Assembly: GCA_903928175.1 (NCBI GenBank)
Contig: CAIYQA010000444.1
Coordinates: 1 to 44,203, forward strand
Reading direction: 5' to 3'
Length of the DNA: 44,203 nucleotides
DNA from: an uncultured Spartobacteria bacterium
GTDB lineage: Bacteria > Verrucomicrobiota > Verrucomicrobiia > Chthoniobacterales > Chthoniobacteraceae
Shown here: one piece after another, positions 14,451 to 40,439 of the stretch
Layout of the letters: the number at the start of each line of letters is the position of its first letter
Numbering within the stretch: the first letter of the stretch is position 1
Made by a program: the position numbers and the translations under genes
The notes under the pieces: generated by a model
The model's input: only the letters and a program-made list of their open reading frames with translations
Databases searched by the model: none
Told to the model about the DNA's origin: nothing

Positions 14451-15941
14451 TTATAGGATATAGCCTTCCTCGCCGTGCTCGGAGAGATCGAGGCCGGAGT
14501 GTTCCTCTTCCGGGGTAATCCGGACGGCCATCATCGCCCGGACAGCATAGGCCACCAATGCGGTGCCGACAGTCGCCACCAGGAACGTCAACCCCATTGC
14601 TTTGAGTTGTTCGATCCAGAGGCCGTTGTTTACGAGCTTGGCAAGGCCGTTGGCTTGCGCGGCGACTCCAGCGAGGTTCGGGTTGACCGCGACATCGGCC
14701 AGAAGCCCCGTCATCAACATCCCGAGCGTCCCGGCAACCCCGTGCACGCCGAAGACATCCAGCGAGTCGTCGTATTTGAACCAGGCTTTCAACTTATACA
14801 CCGCGAGAAACGGAATGACTCCGCCGAGGATGCCGATCAGCATCGCGCCGGAGGCGTTGACGAACCCGCACGCGGGCGTGATCGCGACCAACCCGGCGAC
14901 AATGCCCGAGCAGAATCCGAGCACGCTGGCCTTGCCGCGCACAAAATATTCCGCGAGCGCCCACGTGCCGCTGGCCACTGCCCCGGCGAGGGTGGTGGTG
15001 AGGAAAGCGTTGGATGCCACGCCATCGGCGGCGACTGCGCTCCCGGCGTTGAAGCCATACCAGCCGACCCACAGCATTCCCGCGCCTACCATACAAAATA
15101 CCATGCTGTGCGGGGCAAAGAGTTCCTTCCCGTAATTCATCCTCTTGCCCACAATCAAGCAAAGCACCAGCGAACTCCACCCCGAGGCCATTTCCACCAC
15201 GGTGCCGCCCGCGAAATCAATCGCGCGGATGGCGGCATGCGGATTCCACACGCCGTTCATGAGCCCGTCCACGCCCCAAGCCATGTGCGTGATGGGGATG
15301 TAAACCACAAACATCCAGAGCCCGACAAAGGTCAGGATCGCCTGGAAACGCATCCGCTCCGCCACCGCGCCGACGATCAGCGCCGGGGTGATGATGGCGA
15401 ACATCATCTGGAACATCGCATAGACATTGTGCGAGACCCACGGGGAATAGGCGCAGTTGGGAACGGAAGTCACCCCGCGCAAAAACGCATAATCGAGCCC
15501 GCCAAAAATCCGCCCCAGCGCGCCGCCCCCCGGCGCAAACGCCAGCGAGTAGCCGACCGCCCACCAGATCACCGTCACCAGCGTCGTCACCCCAAGACAT
15601 TGTGCGAGGACGGAGAGGACGTTCTTGCGGCGCACCAGGCCGCCGTAGAAAATTGCCAACCCCGGCAGGGTCATGAAAAGCACGGCGGCGGCGGAAAGCA
15701 TCATCCAGGTGTTATGGCCGGGGCCGGGCACCCCCACGGCGGGGGTGGTCAAACCGGCGGGGGTTTTTCCATTGGCGTCCACCAGGGCCGCCGCGGGATC
15801 AGTGTTTTGGAAATACGCCTCCATCGCCGCGAGCCGCTGCTCGACGGTGGGGGTGGGTTTGGATTCGAGGGCGGACGCGGGAACGGCCGACAACACGACA
15901 AATGCGCCTACGCAAGCGAGGCGCGAAAGGAGGTTACTCAT
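14451..15941 (-). CDS. amtB: Ammonium transporter (Amt family), paralogue 1
   Basis: 496 aa. Signal peptide MSNLLSRLACVGAFVVLSAVPASA. Signatures FAGGTVVEMASGWSSLVLCLIVGKR and FGVHGVAGTLGMLMTG. Collinear with the downstream paralogue over its full length. Confidence 0.93.
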   Translation of the reverse strand: MSNLLSRLACVGAFVVLSAVPASALESKPTPTVEQRLAAMEAYFQNTDPAAALVDANGKTPAGLTTPAVGVPGPGHNTWMMLSAAAVLFMTLPGLAIFYGGLVRRKNVLSVLAQCLGVTTLVTVIWWAVGYSLAFAPGGGALGRIFGGLDYAFLRGVTSVPNCAYSPWVSHNVYAMFQMMFAIITPALIVGAVAERMRFQAILTFVGLWMFVVYIPITHMAWGVDGLMNGVWNPHAAIRAIDFAGGTVVEMASGWSSLVLCLIVGKRMNYGKELFAPHSMVFCMVGAGMLWVGWYGFNAGSAVAADGVASNAFLTTTLAGAVASGTWALAEYFVRGKASVLGFCSGIVAGLVAITPACGFVNASGAMLIGILGGVIPFLAVYKLKAWFKYDDSLDVFGVHGVAGTLGMLMTGLLADVAVNPNLAGVAAQANGLAKLVNNGLWIEQLKAMGLTFLVATVGTALVAYAVRAMMAVRITPEEEHSGLDLSEHGEEGYIL

Positions 15942-16026
15942 TCGCTACGGGGTGTGGTTTGGATGTGGTTTGAAGGCCGCGCCTCAACGTGGTTTGCGAA
16001 TCAGCGCGGCGGGAGAGCGGGGATTT

Positions 16027-16042
16027 AGCAACCCTTATGCCA
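16027..16042 (-). promoter_or_regulatory. Sigma-54-type -24/-12 element for amt(1)
   Basis: The minus strand reads TGGCATaagggTTGCT (consensus TGGCAC-N5-TTGCW), ~86 nt upstream of the ATG at 15941. Confidence 0.55.
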
Positions 16043-16139
16043 GACTCCAGCTTTCCCCGAGAAAGAAGCGGCTTTCTCTGTAAAAAAATGCATAAATTCC
16101 CGCAGTTGGCGGAAAAATGCACAAAGTATCTGTATAAAG

Positions 16140-16157
16140 AACGCCAGTTTTGGCGTT
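16140..16157 (-). terminator. Weak candidate terminator hairpin downstream of polX
   Basis: aacgcca-gttt-tggcgtt has a 7-bp stem. The T-tail on the minus strand is poor (ctttat) and the T-rich run is stronger on the plus strand. Low confidence. Confidence 0.25.
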
Positions 16158-16242
16158 GTTGGTTTTATTTAGACAGGGGCTCTTGGGAGAGTTGGCTATT
16201 TTTAGCCGGTTTTTTTGGGAGGGAGGCCGGAGCATCTCTCTG

Positions 16243-16296
16243 TAGGTCCTATAGGACTTATAGGTCGTATAGGTCGTATAGGACCTATAGGACCTA
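16243..16296. repeat. Six tandem 9-bp units TAGGWCNTA
   Basis: Units are taggtccta, taggactta, taggtcgta, taggtcgta, taggaccta, taggaccta. The first unit is the reverse complement of the last two. The last unit contains the polX stop codon (16294-16296). Confidence 0.9.
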
Positions 16297-18042
16297 TTTC
16301 CGCTTCGCCGCGAGCACGGCTTCGATTTTCCCGAGCGGGAGGGTGTTCACCACGTCGGCGCGGGTCAGCCAGCCTTTGCGGGCCGCCTGCACGCCAAACC
16401 AGAGGTGCTTGAAGCCGTCGATGCTGTGCGCGTCGGGATTGATGACGCAGCGCACCCCCTTCTCTTTGGCGAGCGGCCACCAGCGCCAGTCCATGTCGAG
16501 CCGCTGCGGATTGCCGTTCAACTCAATGAGCGTCCCGGTCTGCGCTGCCGCCTCGATGACGGCGGGGATGTCGAGCGCATACGGTTTGCGCGTGAGCAGA
16601 AGGCGGCCCGTCATGTGTCCCAGCATGGTGACGTGGGGATTTGAGATTGCCTTGACGATGCGCCGCGTCATCTCCGCCTCGGGCAGGTTGAACACGGAAT
16701 GGACGCTCGCGACCACGTAGTCGAGCCGGGAGAGGATTTCGTCGGAAAAATCGAGCGCCCCGTCCTTGAGGATGTCGCATTCGACCCCGGCGAAAAGGCG
16801 AAAACCGTCGTCATACGTGGCGTTGAGCTGCTGGATGGCTTCGATCTGCGCCAGCAGGCGCGCCTCATCAAGGCCGTGCGCCTGGTAGGAACTCTTGGAA
16901 TGGTCGGCGATGCCGAGGTATTGCAGGCCGAGCGCGTGCGCGGCGCGGGCCATCTCCTCCAGCGCGTTGCGCCCGTCGCTGGCCGTGGTATGGCAATGGA
17001 AGGTGCCGCGCAGGTTCTCCAGAGAGATCAAATCAGGCAGCGTGTGCGCCTCGGCGGCGGCGAATTCGCCCAGGTTTTCGCGGAGTTCCGGCGGGACCCA
17101 GTCGAGCCCGAGCGCCCGGTAGAGATCGCGTTCCTCCACGATCTCGGGGATCGGCTCCGGCGTGACGCGCCCCTCTTCCACGGGAGAAAGCCGGTATTCG
17201 TTGAGGGACCAACCGTGCTGGAGCGCCCGCCCGCGCAGGACGATGTTGTGCTCTTTGCTGCCGGTGAAGTAGTTCAAGGCGAAGGGATATTGCGCGTTGC
17301 TCACCACGCGCAGATCGGCCTGCACGCCGTCCCGCAGCCGCACGCTGGATTTGGTGGGCCCGCTGGCGATGACGCTTTTCACCAGCGGATGCTGGGTGAA
17401 AAACCCGGTGATGTTCTCCGGGCGCATCGAGGCGACCACGAAATCGAGATCGTGCACGACCTCCTTGCGCCGCCGGTAGCTGCCGCCGATGGCTAGTTGG
17501 GAGACATCCGGGTGGCTACGCAGATCGTCATAAAGCGCCTCCGCCGCGTCCGCCACATCGCCGAGCAGGAAATTGCCGGCCACGCTTTTGCGTTGCTCGA
17601 TGGATTGCAAAATATTGCATGCGGTTTTCGCTCCAAATCCGCCCAAGGCCGCCACGCGTCCGTCTTTGCAGGCAGCCTCCAATTCCTCGAGCGTGGTGAT
17701 CCCAAGCTTGTCATACAGGGCGCGGATTTTTTTCGGTCCCACCCCCATCAGCTCGAACATTTCGAAAACCCCCGGCGGGAACTCCGCCTTCAACTCTTCG
17801 TAATAGGGAAGATGGCCCGTCTGGACGAGCGTGGCGATTTTTTCGGCAATCGCAGCCCCGATCCCGGGGATTTCCGTGAGCCGCTCTTCTTTTGCGGCGA
17901 CTTCGAGATTTCCCGAGTAGGTCTCGACCGCACGCGCGGCATTTTGATAGGCGCGAATCTTGAAAGGGTTCTCGCCCTTCAATTCCAAAAGTTGCGTGAT
18001 CGCCTCCAGAATCGCGGCCACCTGGTCCTTCGTCATGCTCAT
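16294..18042 (-). CDS. polX: Family X DNA polymerase with C-terminal PHP domain (PolX)
   Basis: 582 aa. HhH N-terminus (ENPFKIRAYQNAARAVE, GIGAAIAEKI), nucleotidyltransferase block (RRRKEVVHDLDFVVAS), and PHP metal-binding motif (TFHCHTTASDGRN ... GIADHSKS). Confidence 0.9.
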   Translation of the reverse strand: MSMTKDQVAAILEAITQLLELKGENPFKIRAYQNAARAVETYSGNLEVAAKEERLTEIPGIGAAIAEKIATLVQTGHLPYYEELKAEFPPGVFEMFELMGVGPKKIRALYDKLGITTLEELEAACKDGRVAALGGFGAKTACNILQSIEQRKSVAGNFLLGDVADAAEALYDDLRSHPDVSQLAIGGSYRRRKEVVHDLDFVVASMRPENITGFFTQHPLVKSVIASGPTKSSVRLRDGVQADLRVVSNAQYPFALNYFTGSKEHNIVLRGRALQHGWSLNEYRLSPVEEGRVTPEPIPEIVEERDLYRALGLDWVPPELRENLGEFAAAEAHTLPDLISLENLRGTFHCHTTASDGRNALEEMARAAHALGLQYLGIADHSKSSYQAHGLDEARLLAQIEAIQQLNATYDDGFRLFAGVECDILKDGALDFSDEILSRLDYVVASVHSVFNLPEAEMTRRIVKAISNPHVTMLGHMTGRLLLTRKPYALDIPAVIEAAAQTGTLIELNGNPQRLDMDWRWWPLAKEKGVRCVINPDAHSIDGFKHLWFGVQAARKGWLTRADVVNTLPLGKIEAVLAAKRK

Positions 18043-18105
18043 GAACGAAACGTAATCACTCGCAGGGCGGGGTGCAAGCCGGGTGTGGTGTGGCCCGGGC
18101 TGAGA

Positions 18106-19830
18106 TCAGTCCGTCTCGGCGAGCAACTCGTCGGACTGGGTGACGCGGACGACCTCCTCCACGGTGGTCTGGCCGCGCAGCACGCGCCGCCAGCCGTCCT
18201 GGCGCAAGGTTTCCATGCCGTCCTGTGTCGCGCGGGCTTTGAGTTGTGCGCCGGTGGCTTTCTGGATGATCAGGCTGCGCAACCCCTGCCCCACGGCGCA
18301 AAATTCGTAAATGGCGGTGCGCCCCCGGTAGCCGGTCTGGCGGCAGCTCTCGCACCCTTTGCCGTGCCGGAATTTTTGCCCGGGCGGGATGGGGCAGCCG
18401 ATTTCGCGGAGGTAATCCTCCGGGTACTCGATCCACTCGGCGCAATCCGGACAAACCGTGCGCACGAGGCGCTGGGCCACAAATGCGCGCACGACCGAGG
18501 CGACGAGGAACGGCTCGATTTCCATGTCCAGGAGGCGGGTGATGCCGCCCACAGCGTCGTTGGTGTGGAGCGTGGAAAAGACCAGGTGGCCGGTCATGGC
18601 GGCGCGGATGGCGATTTCCGCCGTCTCCACATCGCGGATTTCGCCGACCATCACGACGTTGGGGTCCTGGCGCAAAATGGCGCGCAGTCCATTGGCAAAA
18701 GTCAGGCCGATCTCGGGTTTGACGTCGATCTGCGAGACGCCGGGCAGCCGGTATTCGACCGGCTCCTCGATGGTGACGATGCGGCGTTCGACCGAGTTGA
18801 TGGACGAGAGAAACGAGTAGAGCGAGGTGGATTTGCCGGAACCGGTCGGCCCGGTGACAAGAATGATGCCGTTGGGTTCGCGCAGCAGTCGGCGGACGAG
18901 ATCGGCTTGCTCTTGACTCAAGTCGAGCCGCTCGAAGCCGAAGCTGCGGGTCTCGTCACGGTTGAGCAAGCGCAGGGAGATGCTTTCGCCGGTGACGGTG
19001 GGGATGGTGGAAACGCGCACGTCAATGGCGGTCCCGGTGTGTTGCAGGTTGATGCGGCCGTCCTGCGGAAGGCGTTTTTCGGCGATATCCATGTGGGCCA
19101 TCACTTTGAGGCGCGAGATGATGGCGCTTTGCAAAACGCGCAACTGTGGCGGCACGGCGACTTCATGCAGGATGCCGTCGATGCGGTAGCGGATGCGCAG
19201 ATCGTTCTCCAGCGGCTCCACGTGGATGTCGGTGGCCCGCTCGTAGAGGGCTTCGCGGATGATCTGGTTGACGAATTTGACCACCGAGGCCTCCGGGTCG
19301 TCGGCATCGGCGTTCAGGTCAGTGGCTGCGCCTTCCTGATCGGCCAAATCCAGGGAACGGGTGTTTTGAAGCAGTTCCTCGAAGGTTTCCGCCCCGACGC
19401 CGTACACGGCCTTGATGGTGCGCAGAAGCTGGGTGCGCGGCACGAGCACCCATTCGATTTTTTTGCCATTGGCAAGCTGCGCGGCAAGTTGCCGGGCCAT
19501 GCCGTTGAAAGCGTCGTAGGTGGCCAGGCGCAAGCTTTCCTCGCTTACGGCGAGAGGGAGGATGTGGTGCTTGAAGACGAACCGACTGGGCAACGCGGAA
19601 AGCGCGGCGCGGTCGAACCGCGAAATATTGAGCGTCTCCACCGGGGTGTTGAAGAGCAGGCCGAGTTGCTCGGTAAAGCGGATTTCATCGACCTGGCCTG
19701 AATTGAGGACTTCGTTGGTCCACGACGCACCGGGAGTGCGCAAGGAGGCGAGAGCCTTGGCGGTTTCAAGGTCTTCCAGGCCGCTTTCGAGCAGCACATC
19801 CAGGAGCGACTTGCGTTGCATGTTTTTCAT
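18106..19830 (-). CDS. gspE: GspE/PilB-family secretion ATPase (type II secretion / type IV pilus assembly)
   Basis: 574 aa. T2SSE N-terminal domain, Walker A VTGPTGSGKSTSLY, EEPVEY and MVGEIRD boxes, and a tetracysteine CPDC...CESC cluster. Confidence 0.9.
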   Translation of the reverse strand: MKNMQRKSLLDVLLESGLEDLETAKALASLRTPGASWTNEVLNSGQVDEIRFTEQLGLLFNTPVETLNISRFDRAALSALPSRFVFKHHILPLAVSEESLRLATYDAFNGMARQLAAQLANGKKIEWVLVPRTQLLRTIKAVYGVGAETFEELLQNTRSLDLADQEGAATDLNADADDPEASVVKFVNQIIREALYERATDIHVEPLENDLRIRYRIDGILHEVAVPPQLRVLQSAIISRLKVMAHMDIAEKRLPQDGRINLQHTGTAIDVRVSTIPTVTGESISLRLLNRDETRSFGFERLDLSQEQADLVRRLLREPNGIILVTGPTGSGKSTSLYSFLSSINSVERRIVTIEEPVEYRLPGVSQIDVKPEIGLTFANGLRAILRQDPNVVMVGEIRDVETAEIAIRAAMTGHLVFSTLHTNDAVGGITRLLDMEIEPFLVASVVRAFVAQRLVRTVCPDCAEWIEYPEDYLREIGCPIPPGQKFRHGKGCESCRQTGYRGRTAIYEFCAVGQGLRSLIIQKATGAQLKARATQDGMETLRQDGWRRVLRGQTTVEEVVRVTQSDELLAETD

Positions 19831-19851
19831 TCGCCGAACCGTTACCCCGTT

Positions 19852-22278
19852 CTATTCCTCGGGGCGCAAAAAGGCTTTGGGGAAGGCGAACCCGTGCGGA
19901 GCTTTGGGGTCCTCTTTTTTCACGCGGGCCTGCGGCGGGTCAATGGAGTTTTCAAGATCCGGGGGAAAATTGGTTTTTTCCAATGCTTTTTCTCCGGCCT
20001 TGATCGCCTCCACGGGGCCGCCCGTGACGGTGGGCCGGATCAGGACGATCAGTTCGGTGCGCTGGAGGGTCCGCTGGGTGGTGCCGAAGAGCGGCCCAAT
20101 GAGGGGGATGCGGTGCAACACCGGGATGCCGGATTTGGTGGTCTGCTTTTGCTCACTGACCAACCCGCCAAGCACAATGGTGGCTTCGTTGGCGACGGAG
20201 ACGGTGGTGTCAATGGAGCGCGTGGTGACGGTGGGGATGTCGTTGCCGCTGATGTTGGTGGAGCCGCTGATGTTGTTGGCTTCCTGGGTGATCTTCAAGG
20301 TGACTTCCCCCTCGGAGTTGATGAGCGGCAGGACGGAAAGTTTCAAGAGCACATCGATATATTCGATGTTGGTATTGCTCACCAGGCCATTGCCGGTGGT
20401 GCCGTAGCCATAGCTGCTGTTGATGGTGCCGGGAACCGCAACGGATTCGCCCGAGCTGATCACTGCCGGCCGGTTATTGCTGGTAAAGATCATGGGCCGC
20501 GAGGTGACGCGGAAGCGGCCCGTGGATTCGAGGGCGTGAACGATGACGTCAAACGAATGGCTCACGCCGACCAAACCGGTTAAGCCGGTGGTCCCCGGAA
20601 GGCTTGCCACGGAGATAATGTTGGCAAGGCTCACGCTGTTGGTGCCGAGCCCCGGAACGGCTACAGGGAGTCCGGCAGCGCCGGTCCCGGTCCCCGAGAG
20701 GACGGTGGAACCCGAGGCGGCCAGCACCCTGGCAAGATTTCCCTGGTTGAAGAGGTAATCCAAGCCGAATTCCTCGTCGTTGTTGAGGGTCAGTTCGCCA
20801 ATGACAGCCGTGAGCAGGACTTGCGGCGCGCGCACGTCGATTTGATCGAGCAGCTTGAATACTTTTTGCTTCATCTCGTCATTGCCCACGACGATGATGG
20901 CGTTGATCCGGTTGTCGGCGATGATTTTGGTGTTGCGGACGATCCGCCCTTCCGGTGCGGTATCTGTCTGCTGGGTGGTGTTCCCCGACCCGAAAGCGCC
21001 GGGGCTGATGCCGCTGGAGCCACCGCGCGTGCCGCTGGACCCTCTCCGGGAACTCTCGTTTCCGCTGAGGTTCCCCGTGCTGTTGCCGACGGGGTTGGCC
21101 GCGCCGGCGGCGCGCCCGGTATCGAGTTTTTCCACTTTCACGCCCGGCTCTGCGATGGAACCGGCGACGATATCCAGGACGTCTCCCGCCAGAACGAAGC
21201 GCAGCGGGCGCGTGGTCGGTTCCCCCAGCGGCAGGCTGGTGTCAAGCTCGGCGATCAGGCTGCGAAGGAAGGGGAGATTGACCGGACGGGTGACCACATG
21301 GATGCGGTTGGTGCGCAGGTCGGCTTCGATCTTGATTTTTCCCGCGATGAGGGAGTCTTCGGAAAGGGTCACCACTCCACTGGACGCGGCGTTGGGCGGC
21401 GTGCCGGGAGGGCCCGGCACGATACCGCCCGCGCTGGGGGTTTTCTCGAACATTTTGGTAAGGCGCTCGACGACCTCTTTTGCATCGGCCCGCTGCAACT
21501 GGAAAAACTCGCTGACGACCTCCGCCGGTTTGGTATCGAGCCGGGCGACGATCTGCGCGATATTGCGAATGACATCCGAATATTCAGTCACCAGGACCGC
21601 CTGGGATTTCGGCAGCGCGATGATGCTCGTGATGGACGGGGTGGGCGAGACGATCTGGGTGAGCGTTTGCTGGACCTCCACAGGGTCGGCGTATTCGAGT
21701 TTGAAAAGAAAGGAGACCACCTGGTTGCTTTCCGGCAACTGGCTCAGTTCGGAGAGGATGGGGATATTAAATTGGCGGGCGTTTTTGGAGGTATTGATGA
21801 CTTTGACGATGTCGCCCGGGCCGGAGATCAGCGTAAAATTATTGAGGGAAAAAACCGTCTCCAAAATGCGGATGGCCTCCAGCCGGGAAACCGGCTTGGT
21901 GACGCGCACAGTGATTTTCCCCTGCACGGTGCTGTCGTACAGGGCTTTTTTCCCGGTGAGTTGCTCGTAGAGCGGGAGCACCTGGGTGATGTCGGTGTTG
22001 GGGAAATCAATGGATTGAACCATCTCGTCCCCGGAGGCCGGGGACGCCGTGCGGCCTGCCGGAACGGCGGCGGACGGGAACGCGCGGCTCGTGGGAAACG
22101 GAGTGGGCTGGAAGGTCGATCCCGCGTTGGGCGAACGCAACGGTCGGGAAGGAAGGCCCGCATCCGGGGTCGGACCCGGTACCTGCGCCAGGAGAGCGCT
22201 GGAAAAAACCGCCAGGGTGGCCAGCAAAACGGAGCGAATGGGCAAATGCACGAGCCTATTTAAAAGCGCCCGCCCCAT
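19852..22278 (-). CDS. gspD: Outer-membrane secretin (GspD/PilQ family)
   Basis: 808 aa. Signal peptide, N0-like domain (IDFPNTDITQVLPLYEQLTGKKALYDSTVQGKITV), Gly/Ser-rich linker, and a C-terminal secretin domain ending in GIPVLHRIPLIGPLFG. It stops 21 nt before the gspE start. Confidence 0.88.
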   Translation of the reverse strand: MGRALLNRLVHLPIRSVLLATLAVFSSALLAQVPGPTPDAGLPSRPLRSPNAGSTFQPTPFPTSRAFPSAAVPAGRTASPASGDEMVQSIDFPNTDITQVLPLYEQLTGKKALYDSTVQGKITVRVTKPVSRLEAIRILETVFSLNNFTLISGPGDIVKVINTSKNARQFNIPILSELSQLPESNQVVSFLFKLEYADPVEVQQTLTQIVSPTPSITSIIALPKSQAVLVTEYSDVIRNIAQIVARLDTKPAEVVSEFFQLQRADAKEVVERLTKMFEKTPSAGGIVPGPPGTPPNAASSGVVTLSEDSLIAGKIKIEADLRTNRIHVVTRPVNLPFLRSLIAELDTSLPLGEPTTRPLRFVLAGDVLDIVAGSIAEPGVKVEKLDTGRAAGAANPVGNSTGNLSGNESSRRGSSGTRGGSSGISPGAFGSGNTTQQTDTAPEGRIVRNTKIIADNRINAIIVVGNDEMKQKVFKLLDQIDVRAPQVLLTAVIGELTLNNDEEFGLDYLFNQGNLARVLAASGSTVLSGTGTGAAGLPVAVPGLGTNSVSLANIISVASLPGTTGLTGLVGVSHSFDVIVHALESTGRFRVTSRPMIFTSNNRPAVISSGESVAVPGTINSSYGYGTTGNGLVSNTNIEYIDVLLKLSVLPLINSEGEVTLKITQEANNISGSTNISGNDIPTVTTRSIDTTVSVANEATIVLGGLVSEQKQTTKSGIPVLHRIPLIGPLFGTTQRTLQRTELIVLIRPTVTGGPVEAIKAGEKALEKTNFPPDLENSIDPPQARVKKEDPKAPHGFAFPKAFLRPEE

Positions 22279-25242: not shown

Positions 25243-25364
25243 AGGATTTTCCTTTCGCGTTCAATTTATCAAGGAAAGCGGCGGAGTGCAATGGGGTGAA
25301 ATAGGTATGCCTGGGTTCCTGCCTTTGGTTGCATTTGTCCGGGAAACCCGATACAATTGCGGGT

Positions 25365-25862
25365 ATGAAACGATTCCGTGCACCGTGGGGCCGCTGTCTG
25401 GTGTGGATGTCTTTGCTCAGTGTGGTGGTCTGCGCGGTGGCGGCGGTTTCGGTTTGGATGGTGCCGCATCACCCGGCCTCGCGAGCGATGCTTTTCCTGC
25501 TCCAAGAGGGAACTGCCGGATTGATTCTGGCGCTTCTTGTGGGAGCGGCGCTTTTTACCGTGCGCGGTTACACGGTCGCTCCGGATGTGATTCTCGTGCA
25601 CCGGCTCCTCTGGAACACGCCCCTGCCGCGCGAAGGGCTGCTTTCCGCCACAGTCCAAACGCAGGCGATGCAGGGCAGCCTCAAATTGTTTGGCAACGGC
25701 GGGATGTTTTCCTTCACCGGCTGGTTTTGGAGCAAGACCCTGGGCCGTTTCCGGGCCTATGCCACCAATTTGAATTGCACAGTGGTGCTCCGATGGGAAA
25801 AGCGGACGGCCGTGGTTTCGCCGGATAACGCGGAGGAGTTTGTGCGGGAGTTGATGGGGTAG
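25365..25862 (+). CDS. Membrane protein with C-terminal bacterial PH-like domain (tentative)
   Basis: Start at MKRFRAPWGR. Two TM helices, then FGNGGMFSFTGWFWSKTLGRFRAYATNLNCTVVLRWEKRTAVVSPDNAEEFVREL, which resembles bPH-type domains. Coding is likely; the family call is tentative. Confidence 0.5.
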   Translation: MKRFRAPWGRCLVWMSLLSVVVCAVAAVSVWMVPHHPASRAMLFLLQEGTAGLILALLVGAALFTVRGYTVAPDVILVHRLLWNTPLPREGLLSATVQTQAMQGSLKLFGNGGMFSFTGWFWSKTLGRFRAYATNLNCTVVLRWEKRTAVVSPDNAEEFVRELMG

Positions 25863-25878
25863 CCTTCTTGGGGTAGCC

Positions 25879-26035
25879 TTCTCATTAACACCGGGCTTCA
25901 GCCCGGTGAAAGCCTACACACACGGCACAAGCCGTTTTAACGGCTTATCTTGGAATGCTCCGGACCGGAAGCCGTTGAAACGGCTGGGTCTCCGCTATGT
26001 CGCAGCACCGGGCTGAAGCCCGGTGTTAATGAGAA
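25879..26035. mobile_element. 157-bp MITE-like element with perfect 30-bp terminal inverted repeats
   Basis: ttctcattaacaccgggcttcagcccggtg (25879-25908) is the exact reverse complement of caccgggctgaagcccggtgttaatgagaa (26006-26035). Internal sub-hairpins: aagccgttttaacggctt and gaagccgttgaaacggct. No coding capacity. Confidence 0.8.
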
Positions 26036-26102
26036 CACTCCCATGAGAACACTCCCATGAGAACACTCCCATGAGAACACTCCCTTTCCGTGAGAACACT
26101 CC
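26029..26102. repeat. 14-bp tandem repeat (atgagaacactccc), four perfect copies plus one degenerate copy
   Basis: Perfect copies at 26029-26042, 26043-26056, 26057-26070 and 26071-26084. A partial copy tgagaacactcc lies at 26091-26102. The first copy overlaps the right TIR of the MITE. Confidence 0.9.
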
Positions 26103-26271
26103 TTTCTTAATGGAACTGCTGCTGGCTTATATTTTGTAATACTTTCTCTCCCCCCCTTTGCGTTTTTTGCGGCTTTGCGTGAGACCTTCTTCCTTCCGGC
26201 CGCGCCGGAATTTCACGCGCCGCGCTCTCCCCGGGCGTGCGGTTTGCAAAAATCCCGCTCTACGGTGCGGG

Positions 26272-28266
26272 ATGCTCAAAACCGCATTGACCCTGACTGA
26301 AGACCAACTGCAACGGATGGTGCGCTATGTGCGCAACCGCATCGAGGGAATGGACGAGGCCCGCAACAACGGATGGCTCGCCGATCGCGAGCGTTTCGAC
26401 CGGGAGTGGGACGACGATTTTTCCCATCGCGAATGGGAGAATGCCGTGTTCGCCAAATCCAACGAATCGCTGAATATGATTGGGTCGGGCGTGGATTACA
26501 TCCGCTCCCGTATGATCGAGGAGATTTTCGGCGCGAAACCGTGGTTCGCCGCCGATCCGCGCCAGCCCGGTGGGCACGATCCGCTCGTGGCCGAACAAGT
26601 CGGGAGGCATCTGCGCTGGAAGCTCGGGCCGGATCAGATCGATTTCGAGGCGGTTTCGGCGGATTTGGTGACGCAAGCCTGCAAGCTGGGTGAATGCGTG
26701 GCCAAGCTCTTCTACAAGACGGAGGAGGAGCGGTTTGAGCGGATTGCGTCGATCCTGTGGGACACGCAAGCCAACGCGCCGGTGCTGACGCCGGATGGCG
26801 AGTTTGTGTTTGAAGACGGCTCGCTGGATGCGCTGGCGCAAACATTGGCGGCCCCGCTGGATATGGTCATGGAATGGCATCCCGGAGAGCCGGGAGAAAT
26901 GGTTTCCCCGGAGGCGTTGCCGCCCGGGTTGTGTTGGAAGGAGCAGATCGTTTCGGAGCGCATGGTGCGTTCCACGGGAGCCCGGGCGGTGCCGCTGCAT
27001 CCCAAGGAATTTTATTGTCCGCTCAACGCGCCCTCGGTTCACGAGGCGGATTTCGTGGCACACCTGACCTCAATGCGGCTCTCGGAATTGTGCGGGCATC
27101 TCGGCATTGCGCTCGATGACGCCACAAGCGAAGAGGATGAGAGCGCGGACGGGTATTTGAAGCGGGCGCTTTTGCAGATTCGGGCCACTGCGGGTGCGGA
27201 ACCCAAGCCGGAATCCGAGCAGCCGCTTTCGGGTGAGGGGGAGGAAATTCCGGTGGCCGACGCGGACCCGGAGTTTCGCATGTTGGAAGCGTATTTCCGC
27301 TTCGACCCGCGTGGGGATGGGCGCCCGTGCCGGGTGTTCCTGATGGTGGCGTATGATTACGACGTGCCGATTTTCTGGGACTACATCGCCAATGTCACGC
27401 CTGACGGCAAATATCCGTTCGAGGCGGTGGTGGTGAACAAGGAACCACACCGCTGGTATGGGAAAAGTTGGTTCAAAAAATATGAGCGCTTCCAGCATTT
27501 GATCGACAAGCTCACCAACCAGATTCTCTATCGCAACGATCTCGCGGCCAACCCGGTCAAGTTCCGCCGCAAGGAAGCGGTGGTGCAATGGCAGGACGAT
27601 CAGCCGTTCGAGATCGGGCCGGACAAGGTGTTCGACCTCAACGACGGCTACACGGCGGAAGACGCATTGCAAACGGCGCGCATTCCGGAGCTCGATGAGC
27701 AGACGAAATTCTTGCTCGAAATGGTGATCGCAAATTGGCGGATGCGGGCCGGGATGGCAACGGCGACGCAGGGGACGTTTGGCGGATTGCCCAGCGAACG
27801 GACCGCGACGGGCATTACACAAGTGGCGTCCACGGGGCGGACGATGTTCCAGCCGCAGTTGATGGAGGTGAAGCGGGGCTTGGAGGCGGTGTTGCGGCAG
27901 GTGGTGGAATACCAATATACCTACCTGGATGCTGATGAGACGTTCACGTACATGGAGGGAGATCAGCGCCGCCTCGGGCTCTTGAGCCGGGAAAGCGTGC
28001 GGGATTTGGAATTCAATGTGGAGCTGACGCTGACGCTTTCCAAACAGGATCAAAACCTGGAGGCGTCCAAGTTGGCGGTGGATTTCTTTGGGCAATTCCT
28101 GGCCGTTCCGGATGCGTTTAAACCGGTCGCGGCCCCGCTCTTCACGACGGTGTACAAGAACCTGCAAATCGACCATGCAGACGATTATTTCCAACGCGTG
28201 GTGGAGATCGCCCGGCGGCAGGCGACGCCGGAAGCCGTTGATCCCGCCGGGGGCGGCTCGCTTTGA
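26272..28266 (+). CDS. Phage portal-like protein (podovirus / P22-T7-type connector), orphan
   Basis: 664 aa from the ATG at 26272; the track ORF begins at a non-ATG codon at 26158 inside repeat sequence. The central block EAYFRFDPRGDGRPCRVFLMVAYDYDVPIFWDYIANVTPDGKYPFEAVVVNKEPHRWYGKSWFKKYERFQHLIDKLTNQILYRNDLAANP, together with the later GGLPSERTATGITQVAS, follows the pattern I recall for portal proteins: a D-x-DGDG turn, PF, YG-x-S, then long helices and a tunnel-loop-like ER-TA-I segment (T7 gp8 has ESYGRSYIEEYLGDLRSLENL and RTGERVTAEEI). Assignment is from memory of motifs, not from a search. Confidence 0.55.
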   Translation: MLKTALTLTEDQLQRMVRYVRNRIEGMDEARNNGWLADRERFDREWDDDFSHREWENAVFAKSNESLNMIGSGVDYIRSRMIEEIFGAKPWFAADPRQPGGHDPLVAEQVGRHLRWKLGPDQIDFEAVSADLVTQACKLGECVAKLFYKTEEERFERIASILWDTQANAPVLTPDGEFVFEDGSLDALAQTLAAPLDMVMEWHPGEPGEMVSPEALPPGLCWKEQIVSERMVRSTGARAVPLHPKEFYCPLNAPSVHEADFVAHLTSMRLSELCGHLGIALDDATSEEDESADGYLKRALLQIRATAGAEPKPESEQPLSGEGEEIPVADADPEFRMLEAYFRFDPRGDGRPCRVFLMVAYDYDVPIFWDYIANVTPDGKYPFEAVVVNKEPHRWYGKSWFKKYERFQHLIDKLTNQILYRNDLAANPVKFRRKEAVVQWQDDQPFEIGPDKVFDLNDGYTAEDALQTARIPELDEQTKFLLEMVIANWRMRAGMATATQGTFGGLPSERTATGITQVASTGRTMFQPQLMEVKRGLEAVLRQVVEYQYTYLDADETFTYMEGDQRRLGLLSRESVRDLEFNVELTLTLSKQDQNLEASKLAVDFFGQFLAVPDAFKPVAAPLFTTVYKNLQIDHADDYFQRVVEIARRQATPEAVDPAGGGSL

Positions 28267-28280
28267 CGCCGGAGCAAAAG

Positions 28281-28535
28281 ATGGAGCGGGCGGCAGCGAT
28301 TGCGGAGGAATTGACGGTCCTTCACCGCGTCCCCCGCGAGGCGGCGACGCTGCTTGATCGCGAGATGGAGCGGCTCGTCGCGTTTCACACCGAGAAATGC
28401 TGCGATCCGCGGCTCTCCGCCGAGCAAAGCGCGCAGCACAAGGAGGCGCGCGCGTTGGCCCGCGGGCTGGTGGGGTTCTTTGAGAAGCGCAAGGCGGCGC
28501 TCAAGGAGGAGATGGGGAAATTGCGGCGGGGGTAA
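28281..28535 (+). CDS. Small helical protein downstream of the portal-like gene (possible scaffold remnant or partner)
   Basis: MERAAAIAEELTVLHRVPREAATLLDREMERLVAFHTEKCCDPRLSAEQSAQHKEARALARGLVGFFEKRKAALKEEMGKLRRG. An alternative TTG start at 28263 overlaps the portal stop. Charged and helical. No recognisable family. Confidence 0.4.
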   Translation: MERAAAIAEELTVLHRVPREAATLLDREMERLVAFHTEKCCDPRLSAEQSAQHKEARALARGLVGFFEKRKAALKEEMGKLRRG

Positions 28536-28569: not shown

Positions 28570-30741
28570 TCACGCCCGACTCCGCAACGCGCAATACAGC
28601 CGCAGCGGGCCATATTCAAACTTCCCGCCGAGCAATTCCCTGGCTGTGCTGAGGACGCCGGTGGATTTTTCGAGCGCGGTGGACATCAAGCGCTGATCTT
28701 CTTCGCTGAAGAACGTGTCGAGCCGCAACGGTTCTCCGCTTTCCACTGCGGCCACGAGGTGGCCATAGATGGTGCTGGAAACGAAGCTGCGGTGCTGCGC
28801 GATTTGCTCGGCGTTCATCCCGGAACGATACAGGCGCAAGGTTTCTCGCGCCGTGTCGTTCAGGCTTGTTGTTGCGCGCGCTTTCATGGCAGGCGGAGGG
28901 GTTGGGATCGTGAATGAATCCTCGAAAATCTGCCTCGGGTAGGTGCGCAGATAGGCGGCGATTTCGTCGAGAAACGGCTCTGCGTAGGCTTCCAACTTCT
29001 GCCTGCCGACGCCCGAGATGCGCGCGAATTCTTCATGGGTCTCCGGGTAGCGGTTGGCCATCTCGCGCAATGCCACGTCGGAGAAAATGATGTAGGCCGC
29101 CACGTCGTGTTCGTCGGCGATGCGGCGGCGCAAGGCGCGGAGCCGCTCGAAGAGTTGTTCGTCGCATGGAATGTCGCCGCTGCGATGGGTGCTCTGCGGC
29201 TTCGGCTCGACGGTTTTGGTCAGCAACACTTTGCGCCGCTGGGTAAGGACCTCGCGCCCTTCCTGCGTCAGTTCGATCACCGAGAACTTCTCGCTGGTTT
29301 GCCGCAAATAACCCAACCGGATCAGTTCCCGGCCCACCGCCTGCCACTCGGCGCGTTTGAGTTCCTTGCCGATGCCGTAGGTGGAAAGCGCATCATGCCG
29401 CCATTTGCGCACCATGTCCGTCTCCGCTCCGGTCAGCACTTCGATGAGGTGGTTGAGACCGAAACCGTGCCCGGATTTCTCCCATACGCGGTAAACGCAC
29501 GACAGAAATTTCTGCGCCACAAGCGTGCCGTCAAAGGTCTCGCGCGGCGTCAGGCAGTTGTCGCATCCGCCGCACGGCTCCTCCGCCCATTCCTCGCCGA
29601 AGTAGCGCAACAGCGCCACGCGGCGGCATGCGGACGACTCGGCGTAATGCACCATTTTCTGCAATTGCTCGCGCGCGATTTGCTGCTCCTGCAACGTGGG
29701 TTTCTCGTCAATAAATCCGTTCTGCTTCACCACATCCGCGGCGCTGAAAAGCAGGAGGCATTCGCTCGGGAGGCCGTCGCGCCCGGCCCGCCCGGTCTCC
29801 TGGTAATAGCCCTCGATGTTTTTCGGCAGATCGTAATGGACCACATACCGGACGTTCGGTTTGTTGATGCCCATGCCAAAGGCGATGGTCGCGGCGATCA
29901 CGCGCACTTCGTCGCGCAGGAAGAGTTCCTGGTGGTGGTTGCGCTCTTTGGCTGTGAGGCCCGCGTGGTAAGGCAGCGCTTTGATGCCGTCCTCGGTGAG
30001 CCGTTGCGCCACGCTCTCGGCGGATTTCCGACTGAAACAGTAAACAATCCCGCTTTCGTTGCGCCGTTTGCGCACAAACTCGCGCACCTGCTCGTACGGT
30101 TTGGATTTGGGGATGACTCGGTAGATGAGATTGGGGCGGTTGAAGCTGGCGACGTAAGTGCGCGAATCGTCCAGGCGCAATTGCCGCACAATGTCTTCGC
30201 GCACCCGCTCGGTCGCCGTAGCGGTCAATGCCATGATCGGCACGCCGGGAAAATGGTCGCGCAAGGTCGAGAGTTGACGGTATTCCGGTCGGAAATCGTG
30301 CCCCCATTCGCTGATGCAGTGCGCCTCGTCGATGGCGATGAGGTTCACGTTCCAGCGCTTCAAATCGTCCAGCATTCCTGAAAGCATGAGCCGTTCCGGC
30401 GCGGCGTAGAGCAACCGGTATTCGCCGAGGTGCAGGCCGCGCAGTCGCTTGCGCCCTTCGCCTTGCGCGAGCGCGGAGTTGAGGAACGTGGCCGCGATTC
30501 CGCTCGCTTGCAGCGCGTCCACCTGGTCTTTCATCAGCGAAATGAGCGGGGAGACGACCACCGTCAGCCCTGGTTTCATCAAGGCCGGGAGCTGGAAGCA
30601 AAGTGATTTCCCGCCGCCGGTCGGCAGCAGCGCAAACACGTCCCGGCCCGAAAGCGCATCGAGGATGATTTCCTCCTGCAAGGGGCGAAACGCCGTGAAG
30701 CCAAACGATTGCTTCAAGGTTTCCAATAATGGCTGCTTCAT
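28570..30741 (-). CDS. recQ: ATP-dependent DNA helicase RecQ (with RQC, HRDC and an extra C-terminal HTH-like domain)
   Basis: FGFTAFRPLQEEII, LLPTGGGKSLCFQLPAL, IAIDEAHCISEWGHDFRPEY, the Zn-binding CRR...CGGCDNC, and an HRDC-like block (LRALRRRIADEHDVAAYIIFSDVALREMA). The ATG at 30741 is preferred; a GTG at 30759 is the track start. Confidence 0.93.
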   Translation of the reverse strand: MKQPLLETLKQSFGFTAFRPLQEEIILDALSGRDVFALLPTGGGKSLCFQLPALMKPGLTVVVSPLISLMKDQVDALQASGIAATFLNSALAQGEGRKRLRGLHLGEYRLLYAAPERLMLSGMLDDLKRWNVNLIAIDEAHCISEWGHDFRPEYRQLSTLRDHFPGVPIMALTATATERVREDIVRQLRLDDSRTYVASFNRPNLIYRVIPKSKPYEQVREFVRKRRNESGIVYCFSRKSAESVAQRLTEDGIKALPYHAGLTAKERNHHQELFLRDEVRVIAATIAFGMGINKPNVRYVVHYDLPKNIEGYYQETGRAGRDGLPSECLLLFSAADVVKQNGFIDEKPTLQEQQIAREQLQKMVHYAESSACRRVALLRYFGEEWAEEPCGGCDNCLTPRETFDGTLVAQKFLSCVYRVWEKSGHGFGLNHLIEVLTGAETDMVRKWRHDALSTYGIGKELKRAEWQAVGRELIRLGYLRQTSEKFSVIELTQEGREVLTQRRKVLLTKTVEPKPQSTHRSGDIPCDEQLFERLRALRRRIADEHDVAAYIIFSDVALREMANRYPETHEEFARISGVGRQKLEAYAEPFLDEIAAYLRTYPRQIFEDSFTIPTPPPAMKARATTSLNDTARETLRLYRSGMNAEQIAQHRSFVSSTIYGHLVAAVESGEPLRLDTFFSEEDQRLMSTALEKSTGVLSTARELLGGKFEYGPLRLYCALRSRA

Positions 30742-30769
30742 GGGTGGGCAATATGACACGGAAGCAGCG

Positions 30770-39169: not shown

Positions 39170-39198
39170 TAAATGAGGGGGGAGAAAAAGAGGGGGGG

Positions 39199-39279
39199 TG
39201 CTCACGAGAGGAGTCGAACCTCCACGGGTTTCCCCATACGGTCCTGAGCCGTACGCGTCTGCCATTCCGCCACGTGAGC
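39199..39279 (-). tRNA. tRNA-Leu (anticodon CAG)
   Basis: Reverse complement is GCTCACG TG GCG GAATGGCAGA CGC G TACGG CTCAGGA CCGTA TGGGGAAACCCGT GGAGG TTCGACT CCTCT CGTGAGC A. CCA not encoded. Confidence 0.9.
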
Positions 39280-39452: not shown

Positions 39453-40439
39453 CTAGGAAGTCCGGTCAGAATGGCGGAAATACTTCTTCACAAAAAGAAG
39501 GTATCCAAGCCACGGGATCACGGCGGCAAGGGAGAGCCAAACTACGTTATGGCCATGAAGGAAACGGAGATGCTCTAGGCGCGTTAACTTTTCCCCTGAG
39601 TATCCTGCCAGCTTGTAAAATTCCATGACACCACGTTGATAATACGTAATAGCGGCCGCGATCGGAAGGATGCAAACGGCAATGACGCTGACCCACCAAC
39701 CGCGAAAATCGAGGTTATAAAATGCCCAAGCTACGCAGAACCAAAGGGCAGAAAATAGAAAATAGACAACTATTCCGGGCAGTCCCGCGAGATAGATTCC
39801 AAAGAAGGGGATCGCTCCGTGAAAGCTGAATGAAATCAGGATCATGGAAGTTGCTTTGAATGCCATATAGAGGCTGACCGCAAGCACGGGCAAGGGGCAG
39901 CGATCTGTCCAGCGCACTATGGGGTCTCGCCTTTCGCATGTTGCCTTGACGCTCTCGCCTCCATAGAAAAACGCCCAAATGGCTGGCAGGATTACAAACA
40001 TCACGCCGAAAACTCCGCCCATAATGACCAGGATCCATTTGGCGGTTTCGGGGAGTTGGTGCCCAGATGATTGAGTTGCCTGCATACGCGCGAGGAACGT
40101 CCCTGACATAGCGACAAGGAATGCCATAATTACTAGACCGAGAATCAGGGTGCTCCAAGACATGATAAGCAAGAGCGCCCGAGCCCAGCGCCGGGCCATG
40201 ATAGAGCCAATTCCCAGCCAGATGAACGCCACAGCCAGTCCTCCATATATGAAGACAGCCATCATGCTTTGATGTGGAATGCCTGCTTTCTGTCGGGACA
40301 TTGATTGTCCAAGAAGCAAGAGTGGCACCAACAATGCGCCCAGTAACCCGCCCAGAATCGTCAGGGTGCCAAAGAATGTCAGACTGGTTTTGCGGTCTTT
40401 GAATTCCATGGGGAGGGATGGCGTAATTTCCTGATTCAT
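39453..40439 (-). CDS. Hypothetical polytopic membrane protein (~8 TM), AT-richer than its neighbours
   Basis: This is the real part of track ORF 39453..41432, starting at MNQEITPSLPMEFKDRK (ATG at 40439; alternative ATG at 40409). It contains many hydrophobic helices. No recognisable family. Confidence 0.65.
   Translation of the reverse strand: MNQEITPSLPMEFKDRKTSLTFFGTLTILGGLLGALLVPLLLLGQSMSRQKAGIPHQSMMAVFIYGGLAVAFIWLGIGSIMARRWARALLLIMSWSTLILGLVIMAFLVAMSGTFLARMQATQSSGHQLPETAKWILVIMGGVFGVMFVILPAIWAFFYGGESVKATCERRDPIVRWTDRCPLPVLAVSLYMAFKATSMILISFSFHGAIPFFGIYLAGLPGIVVYFLFSALWFCVAWAFYNLDFRGWWVSVIAVCILPIAAAITYYQRGVMEFYKLAGYSGEKLTRLEHLRFLHGHNVVWLSLAAVIPWLGYLLFVKKYFRHSDRTS

Follow-up and report, generated by a model that had tools for sequence, protein, structure and literature searches.

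Phage structural genes retained by bacteria

The closest described systems to the genes considered here are gene transfer agents (GTAs), the SU10-like and N4-like podophages, capsid-forming phage-inducible chromosomal islands (cf-PICIs), and encapsulins. To our knowledge, GTAs occur in few lineages only, always as compact clusters and mostly with siphovirus-like ancestors, and none is known in the Verrucomicrobiota. A 44,203-nucleotide stretch of DNA from an uncultured Spartobacteria bacterium of this phylum (family Chthoniobacteraceae; contig CAIYQA010000444.1, assembly GCA_903928175.1), analysed at its full length and referred to as the window, encodes a phage portal protein and a small partner among cellular genes. 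The two genes are domesticated and under purifying selection. The portal is somewhat more probably than otherwise one module of a vertically inherited, dispersed set of phage head and packaging genes, of which the product would most likely be a GTA-like particle.

RcGTA of Rhodobacter capsulatus, BaGTA, and VSH-1 are encoded by chromosomally fixed, phage-derived genes for the terminase large subunit (TerL), portal, and capsid, which are vertically inherited under purifying selection. They lack integrase and replication genes, some of their genes lie at separate loci, and their promoters are apparently host-specific. All of these features have counterparts in the genes described here. However, the known GTAs are of siphovirus-like ancestry, whereas the portal here is of a podophage type (SU10/N4-like) and belongs to the phylum Verrucomicrobiota. 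The particles of GTAs carry random pieces of host DNA that are too short to hold the genes for the particle itself.

The SU10_portal-family podophages and N4-like phages (Pa223, N4, DEV; PDB 9nwm, 9yf8, 9bgm, 7z44) have portals of the same fold, and the secondary-structure elements follow one another in a matching order (wing, stem helix, clip, stem helix, tunnel loop, long helix, and crown). A giant open reading frame (ORF) just upstream of the portal in its closest phage relatives is reminiscent of the giant virion proteins of the N4-like group. Unlike podophage portals, the host copy stands among housekeeping genes, and it has no counterpart of the low-complexity C-terminal tail seen in its phage relatives. 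cf-PICIs are likewise chromosomal and encode capsid, portal, and terminase themselves, whereas for tails they rely on a helper phage. In contrast to the dispersed modules described here, which are syntenic with core genes, they are mobile islands of compact size that include integrase, regulator, and replication genes. Encapsulins, in which an HK97-fold capsid gene is paired with a small cargo gene, also combine a single phage structural gene with a small partner in a two-gene operon. They involve neither portal nor terminase, whereas here a portal appears to have been exapted and TerL co-retained.

The portal protein of the window

The product of the portal gene matches the Pfam family PF23899 (SU10_portal) over residues 74–559 with 81.9 bits (cut-off 30; E=4.6e-23), and the portal family phrog_1216 at 3.9e-18. 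An AlphaFold2 monomer model was built from 26 homologues, with a predicted local distance difference test (pLDDT) score of 72 and a predicted template-modelling (pTM) score of 0.65. The best Foldseek matches of this model in the PDB are the portals of Pa223, N4, DEV, cyanophage A4, SU10, Pan3, VP1, PaP3, T7, and P22 (best E=1.1e-15, probability 1.0, template-modelling score 0.4–0.5), to which its sequence identity is 10–16%. Among the 50 PDB matches listed (80 have E ≤ 0.001), all are portal or portal-tail entries, and the best match in BFVD is also a portal (E 1.1e-23). The 664-residue protein is a phage portal of the podovirus type. This is what the original prediction, made from the letters of the window, had claimed and had proposed to examine by a fold search of a predicted structure. 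The three peptides quoted in support of it, FRFDPRGDGRPCRV, WYGKSWFKKYERFQHLIDKL, and GGLPSERTATGI, are all present in the translation.

Sequence searches of the PDB and of 50,697 GenBank phage records with the portal returned no match; the window portal is a distant branch of the portal family. A peptide-pattern scan of IMG/VR with the portal also gave no match. The family is seen only in metagenomes and metagenome-assembled genomes (MAGs).

In the model, the order of the helices at residues 400–426, 427–471, 472–493, 494–511, and 512–550 is consistent with stem, clip, stem, tunnel loop, and long helix, respectively. The presumed clip region (427–471) is modelled with low confidence, yet it is the most conserved stretch of the protein (0.94). 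Stem, clip, and tunnel loop are the best-conserved parts overall (majority-residue frequency 0.84–0.94), and their conservation is largely common to the phage copies, which fits a working portal. The protein has no signal peptide or membrane segment.

Distribution, descent, and selection

A large protein collection holds 61 clusters of the portal at 45–92% identity, 52 of them of the host type, and the named ones are all from Verrucomicrobia or Chthoniobacteraceae. Among species-representative Chthoniobacteraceae genomes, 16 encode the portal at 17 loci, one MAG having both a host-context copy (L019) and a phage-context copy (L020). A further 23 metagenome contigs add portal loci. Every locus whose portal is at least 59% identical to that of the window has housekeeping flanks. 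These flanks are not the same throughout, as the host-context portal is found in at least seven different neighbourhoods. The group of the window has the order ClpB-bPH_5-portal-small-RecQ-UbiD, while another has PPK2-(bPH_5)-portal-small-...-FeS_assembly_P. Of the two-gene context next to recQ, for which a survey of orthologues had been proposed, the pair is kept in every locus that is long enough to show it, and RecQ is the neighbour in the group of the window.

No integrase was found in the flanks of the host-context loci, and in 12 annotated loci no integrase, regulator, or replication genes lie within 10 kb of any module. A phage satellite of the PICI or cf-PICI kind was rejected on the latter grounds. 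In a neighbour-joining tree the host-context portals form one clade beside the phage copies, which indicates a single capture followed by vertical descent. Within the ClpB-syntenic group, portal identity (77–92%) falls in parallel with ClpB identity (88–96%). Residence in complete prophages, which had been named as a finding that would speak against a domesticated gene, does not apply to orthologues of the host clade and was seen only for the phage relatives at 45–52% identity.

The portal reading frame is intact in all host copies, which cover 16 host-context species genomes and dozens of metagenome contigs. Ratios of nonsynonymous to synonymous substitution rates (dN/dS) were estimated by the Nei-Gojobori method for the window versus other host copies, at dS values of 0.6 to above 2. 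They are 0.07–0.22 for the portal and 0.05–0.25 for the small gene. For TerL, dN/dS by the same method is 0.13–0.24. Given the intact frames and low dN/dS, portal and partner are domesticated and under purifying selection, and are not decaying. A prophage, intact or decaying, was likewise rejected, since the window has cellular genes on both sides of the pair, no copy of the gene is disrupted, and dN/dS stays far below 1. The G+C content of the portal gene (0.597–0.603 along its length) matches that of the neighbouring genes, the rest of the window ranging from about 0.53 to 0.66. Together with the dN/dS values, this agrees with the long residence under selection that had been deduced from the uninterrupted frame and host-like composition.

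Two loci show unusual arrangements. In L022, a Wadjet-like cluster of JetA, JetB, and an SMC-type ATPase (15171–21132) stands between FeS_assembly_P and a Macro-domain gene, and the syntenic L021 is without it. In L049, one ORF (67–1353) joins an unrelated N-terminus to portal residues 250–455 and a DnaJ-like C-terminus. This contig was left out of consideration, as it is most likely a chimeric metagenome assembly.

The small partner gene

Wherever a locus reaches far enough beyond the portal, a homologue of the small gene comes next, also in all four phage-context loci, and the pair was therefore inherited as a unit. In the window the 90-residue ORF overlaps the portal stop codon by 4 nt (cTTGA). 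The corresponding NTGA stop/start overlap is present in 18 of 21 host copies, although the start codon varies between ATG, GTG, and TTG. The coupling of a small helical ORF to the portal, which had been read from the window, is thus borne out in the host copies.

The partner is predicted by AlphaFold2 to form four helices (pLDDT 96.8), and its alignment has a mean column identity of 80%. In an alignment of 16 sequences the invariant residues include H42, E44, C46, C47, D48, H59, and E61, although H59 is not invariant in a larger set of 27. The Cys and His residues possibly form a metal site. Searches of Pfam, PHROG, PDB, and PADLOC with the partner gave no match, and a fold search returned generic helical bundles only, with no fold match. 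A profile search of 1.84 billion representatives yielded 7 hits only. On this sequence evidence, the partner is without relatives beyond this lineage and represents what appears to be a new portal-associated protein family.

In the phage copies (L020 6164–6433; L024 12033–12302; L042 2368–2658), the partner starts 92–122 nt inside the 3' end of the portal gene, in another frame. The portal stretch overlapped in this way is a low-complexity C-terminal tail of 40–130 aa, which has been lost from the host portals. A programmed frameshift that would fuse portal and small ORF was considered and rejected, as the frame offset is -1 in host copies versus +1 in phage copies.

Terminase and capsid genes in related genomes

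A tblastn comparison of all ORFs of the phage-context contigs with 660 kb of host loci revealed a 592-aa gene that is homologous to a gene on the phage contig L042 and that immediately precedes the portal in L001/L019, L016/L036, and L018. It matches phrog_2 at 5e-12, and its profile matches the nuclease domain of T4 gp17 at 4e-9. The motifs KPRQKGSST (Walker-A-like), LHVSE, ETTANG, and HDDDV are invariant. By these matches the gene is assigned as TerL, with its ATPase and nuclease motifs kept. A database search with TerL found about 55 host-type clusters at 59–75% identity, versus the 52 of the portal, and many of them are on long contigs of up to 986 kb.

TerL and portal are not always adjacent. 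The closest relative of the window is the LacPavin MAG (GCA_026398235.1), whose portal is 92% identical. Its TerL gene is on a separate contig, downstream of S16 and SRP54 genes and upstream of purM-like (AIRS-domain) genes. In the window itself, tblastn with TerL and capsid queries found no match in 44 kb, in agreement with the earlier statement that no other viral gene is present there. The premise of a lone orphan, which underlay the suggestions of a decoy, sensor, or channel, fails outside the window, as relatives keep TerL and one contig has a capsid gene.

The capsid gene is found on L031, where the portal is 82% identical to that of the window. This contig has the order ClpB, bPH_5, portal, small gene, FeS_assembly_P (minus strand), an acidic helical ORF of 206 aa, and an ORF cut by the contig end. 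The last two make up a second module (5295–6329), which begins about 0.6 kb downstream of the portal pair. The terminal fragment (6042–6329), 1.3 kb beyond the small gene, matches phrog_334 ‘major head protein’ at 1e-10 and Pfam Phage_capsid_3 with 35.1 bits (cut-off 23), as well as annotated capsid genes of several podophages. The 206-aa ORF is a candidate scaffold by its position and composition. Exact-sequence look-up of the capsid and scaffold ORFs and a peptide-pattern scan of IMG/VR with the capsid fragment gave no match.

Immediately before the portal, L001 (9236–9532, minus strand), L016, L018, and L043 have a conserved ORF of 98 aa that runs in the opposite direction. It lies between TerL and portal where TerL is present, and its copies are 50–64% identical to one another.

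A shared upstream motif

The portal gene is preceded by a promoter-like leader of three boxes (Table 1). In 16 aligned host loci the consensus is ATTTGACGC, about 15 nt, GGGCGTGCGGTTT, and then CTACGGTGCGGG-ATG, irrespective of the upstream gene. The leader motif was not found in the phage-context copies. The same architecture precedes the scaffold/capsid module of L031. Upstream of TerL, boxes 2 and 3 (GCTTGCGGT; CTTACG..GG.GGG-ATG) are present in L050 and L051, while L052 has boxes 1 and 3 and no box 2.

The motif was searched for on both strands of 788 kb of related DNA. Of 21 listed matches to box 2, 17 are before portals, one is before TerL (L050), one is before the L031 scaffold/capsid module, and two are distinct stray sites. 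A search of the window for further regulon-type copies of the motif found none, the other GCKTGCGGT matches being within coding regions or without box 1. The conserved leader was also tested for a consensus RNA structure, with a negative result; a hairpin precedes the ATG in some loci and is not general. The motif may be best understood as a common promoter or operator.

The leader also bears on the start of the portal gene. In the window the reading frame is open from 26158 to 28266 on the plus strand, which would allow a protein of 702 aa from a TTG at 26158. This longer reading was rejected, since its extra codons would cover the conserved non-coding motif and are found in no orthologue. 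The start in all orthologues is the ATG at 26272, with which the protein opens as MLKTALTLT, and the shorter reading is therefore correct.

Phage relatives

Portals that are 45–52% identical to that of the window are found in one-directional clusters of uncharacterised genes, with PHROG matches to tail proteins and holin as well as lysis and giant-protein matches. One of these clusters occupies the end of a contig of 151 kb that was assigned to a Chthoniobacteraceae MAG. These copies belong to phages or prophages of the same host family. Directly upstream of the phage-context portals lies a giant ORF of 1,367 to 2,885 aa (2,600–2,900 aa in the closest phage relatives), as in L024 (1895–9865), in L002 (30–4133), and on the contig of P0056. 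The giant ORF of L024 matches phrog_11358, a PHROG of unknown function with a profile of 3,431 positions. The giant ORFs may encode virion-packaged proteins like those of N4-like phages.

More distant relatives are present in IMG/VR, where 252 viral contigs have TerL relatives at 33–40% identity, many of the longer contigs being about 50–68 kb. Two contigs (L085 1021–8193; L086) encode a portal 24–26% identical to that of the window, ~3.7 kb downstream of TerL.

At the contig start of L018/L052 (147–2126) there is a series of short ORFs on one strand, among which two resemble membrane proteins and one an endolysin, and some of the series are 37–77% identical to genes of the phage contig L024. 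The holin-like and endolysin-like genes of L018 were considered as part of the old set. This was rejected because they are 68–77% identical to L024, far closer than the portals are, and the series has the appearance of a more recent phage fragment, located at 4 kb from the TerL-portal module.

Possible roles of the portal module

The retention of portal, TerL, and, on one contig, capsid genes of common phage character is the basis for the favoured reading of a dispersed head and packaging set. The ancestor of a Chthoniobacteraceae clade would have captured such a set from a podophage-like lineage carrying giant proteins and inherited it vertically thereafter. The genome of the window would then also hold TerL and capsid genes elsewhere, and the modules would be co-regulated via the shared motif. 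The portal would form a 12-mer ring at one vertex of the capsid as the point of DNA entry, and TerL would pump DNA through this ring. The small protein may be a portal-associated assembly or plug factor, possibly metal-binding, and the GTA-like particle would be made for the benefit of the host. The conserved stem, clip, and tunnel loop, the catalytic motifs of TerL, and purifying selection give the set the look of a working packaging vertex rather than a passive decoy.

More specifically, a new GTA-like system is tentatively proposed in the Verrucomicrobiota, derived from genes of an N4/SU10-type podophage and scattered as modules of one or two genes, for which the shared promoter motif is the only link. 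If true, a TerL/portal/capsid set in this widespread family of freshwater and soil Verrucomicrobia would extend such systems to a new phylum and to a new type of ancestral phage. It would also mean that a domesticated particle system can outlast complete fragmentation of its gene cluster, and that genome scans based on clusters would miss it. The conserved promoter motif offers a handle for locating the remaining genes and the regulator.

Several observations weigh against a dispersed particle system. In known GTAs, a single cluster of ~15 kb contains the TerL, portal, protease, and capsid genes, in contrast to the modules of one or two genes here, and we know of no precedent among GTAs for scattering of TerL, portal, and capsid to this degree. 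The loci examined yielded no tail, adaptor, or lysis genes of the host type. The capsid module has been seen once, on a metagenome contig of 6.3 kb whose end cuts the capsid gene to a fragment of 96 aa. At TerL, box 1 lies closer to the other boxes, so that co-regulation is only suggested. Finally, the TerL gene of the LacPavin MAG has one frameshift, although the nearest other copies, 84–89% identical to it, are intact.

The main rival explanation, rather unlikely on present evidence, is interference with phages or piracy. The host portal, its partner, and TerL, perhaps with the capsid, would target relatives of the ancestral phage during infection. They might co-assemble into phage procapsids, or the clip might bind phage terminase or adaptor, resulting in poisoned assembly or packaging of host DNA. 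Such a system would resemble a chromosomally fixed, helper-dependent satellite and, if true, would give bacteria an equivalent of the restriction factors derived from Gag, such as Fv1. Related phages do infect the family, and the MAG with both portal types has its phage-context copy at the end of the 151-kb contig. However, this coexistence of a host-type copy with a related prophage means that exclusion would be at best partial. The consensus sequences of host and phage copies are ~82% identical in the clip against ~50% in the whole protein, and host portals lack the 40–130-aa C-terminal tail, as a dominant-negative form might. Conversely, TerL retains all of its catalytic motifs, which a passive decoy would not need. 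That no tail genes were found would fit helper dependence, but the genes are at stable syntenic sites of the core genome and not in defence islands, and they evolve at housekeeping-like rates with low dN/dS and no sign of an arms race. In addition, portal, small protein, and bPH_5 have no match among the known defence families of PADLOC-DB v2 at E ≤ 1.

It is less likely again that the portal ring and its partner were exapted as a cellular channel or scaffold, independent of TerL and capsid, whose presence in relatives would then be a leftover of its own. The lineage of the window has portal and TerL at unlinked sites and the pair has its own conserved upstream motif, but related motif boxes also precede TerL and the capsid module. 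TerL is moreover under the same purifying selection as the portal and has a similar number of clusters (about 55 vs 52). The bPH_5 membrane protein is a recurrent neighbour. Against this reading, the portal itself is without signal peptide or membrane segment, and its best-conserved parts are those that face terminase and DNA in real portals.

The last surviving piece of a degraded prophage, inert and awaiting deletion, had been among the earlier suggestions and can be dismissed: it would fit the lack of other phage genes within 44 kb and the frameshifted TerL of one MAG, but is refuted by frames intact in the 16 host-context species genomes and dozens of metagenome contigs, by dN/dS of 0.05–0.25 at dS of 0.6 to above 2, and by conservation of the coupling overlap and upstream motif.

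The window locus and neighbouring elements

The features of the window and the host-type TerL genes of related loci are listed in Table 1. The portal is flanked in the window by 26 kb of cellular genes leftward and 16 kb rightward. The remaining ORFs that could be annotated are all cellular and encode an extracytoplasmic function (ECF) sigma factor, HtrA, RecC/RecB/RecD, two Amt proteins, PolX, GspE, GspD, ClpB, RecQ, UbiD, GH2, a major facilitator superfamily (MFS) protein, and GcvP, along with three tRNAs. The boundaries given earlier for the portal gene, with repeats resembling a miniature inverted-repeat transposable element (MITE) and tandem repeats leftward and convergent recQ rightward, also proved correct.

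Table 1. Positions of the portal module, its surroundings in the window, and host-type TerL genes in related loci.
Feature	Locus	Position	Strand	Remarks
Portal gene	window	26272..28266	+	664 aa plus stop
Small partner gene	window	28263..28535	+	90 aa, TTG start overlapping portal stop
recQ	window	28570..30759	-	convergent, right of pair
bPH_5 membrane-protein gene	window	25329..25862	+	Pfam PF10882 at 7.5e-11
MITE-like inverted repeat	window	25858-26056		between bPH_5 gene and portal
14-nt tandem repeats	window	26029-26103		left of portal, after MITE-like element
Promoter-like leader of portal module	window	26210..26274	+	three boxes
Box 1	window	26210-26218		ATTTCACGC
Box 2	window	26234-26243		GGCGTGCGGT
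Box 3	window	26260-26274		CTACGGTGCGGG then ATG
TerL, host type	L001	7450-9228		adjoins portal
TerL, host type	L016/L036	about 7585-9396		adjoins portal
TerL, host type	L018	6279-8033		adjoins portal
TerL, host type	L050	9905-11706		single frameshift near 11146
TerL, host type	L051	10001-11776		alone among housekeeping genes, 986-kb contig

The bPH_5 gene adjoins the portal in two synteny groups, one following ClpB (window, L004, L006, L008, L027–L029, L031) and one following PPK2 (L011, L012, L022). It is not present in L005, L007, L021, and most other loci, and its membership of the portal system is uncertain.

The MITE-like element and its repeats (25855–26103) sit between the stop codon of the bPH_5 gene and the portal promoter motif, and were seen neither in orthologous intergenic regions nor anywhere in the 52 loci compared. 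The terminal inverted repeats are 51 nt long (25858–25908 and 26006–26056) and 82% complementary. A 14-nt direct duplication, TGGGGTAGCCTTCT, is present at 25855–25882, and the tandem repeat that follows the element consists of 3–4 copies of the 14-nt unit ATGAGAACACTCCC.

Farther to the right, a small ORF for a multi-pass membrane protein (39453–39850, minus strand) is located beside tRNA-Leu (39197–39279). A solitary GCTTGCGGT box lies 33 nt upstream of its ATG, the remaining motif being absent there, and the ORF falls in the kilobase of lowest G+C content in the window (0.533).

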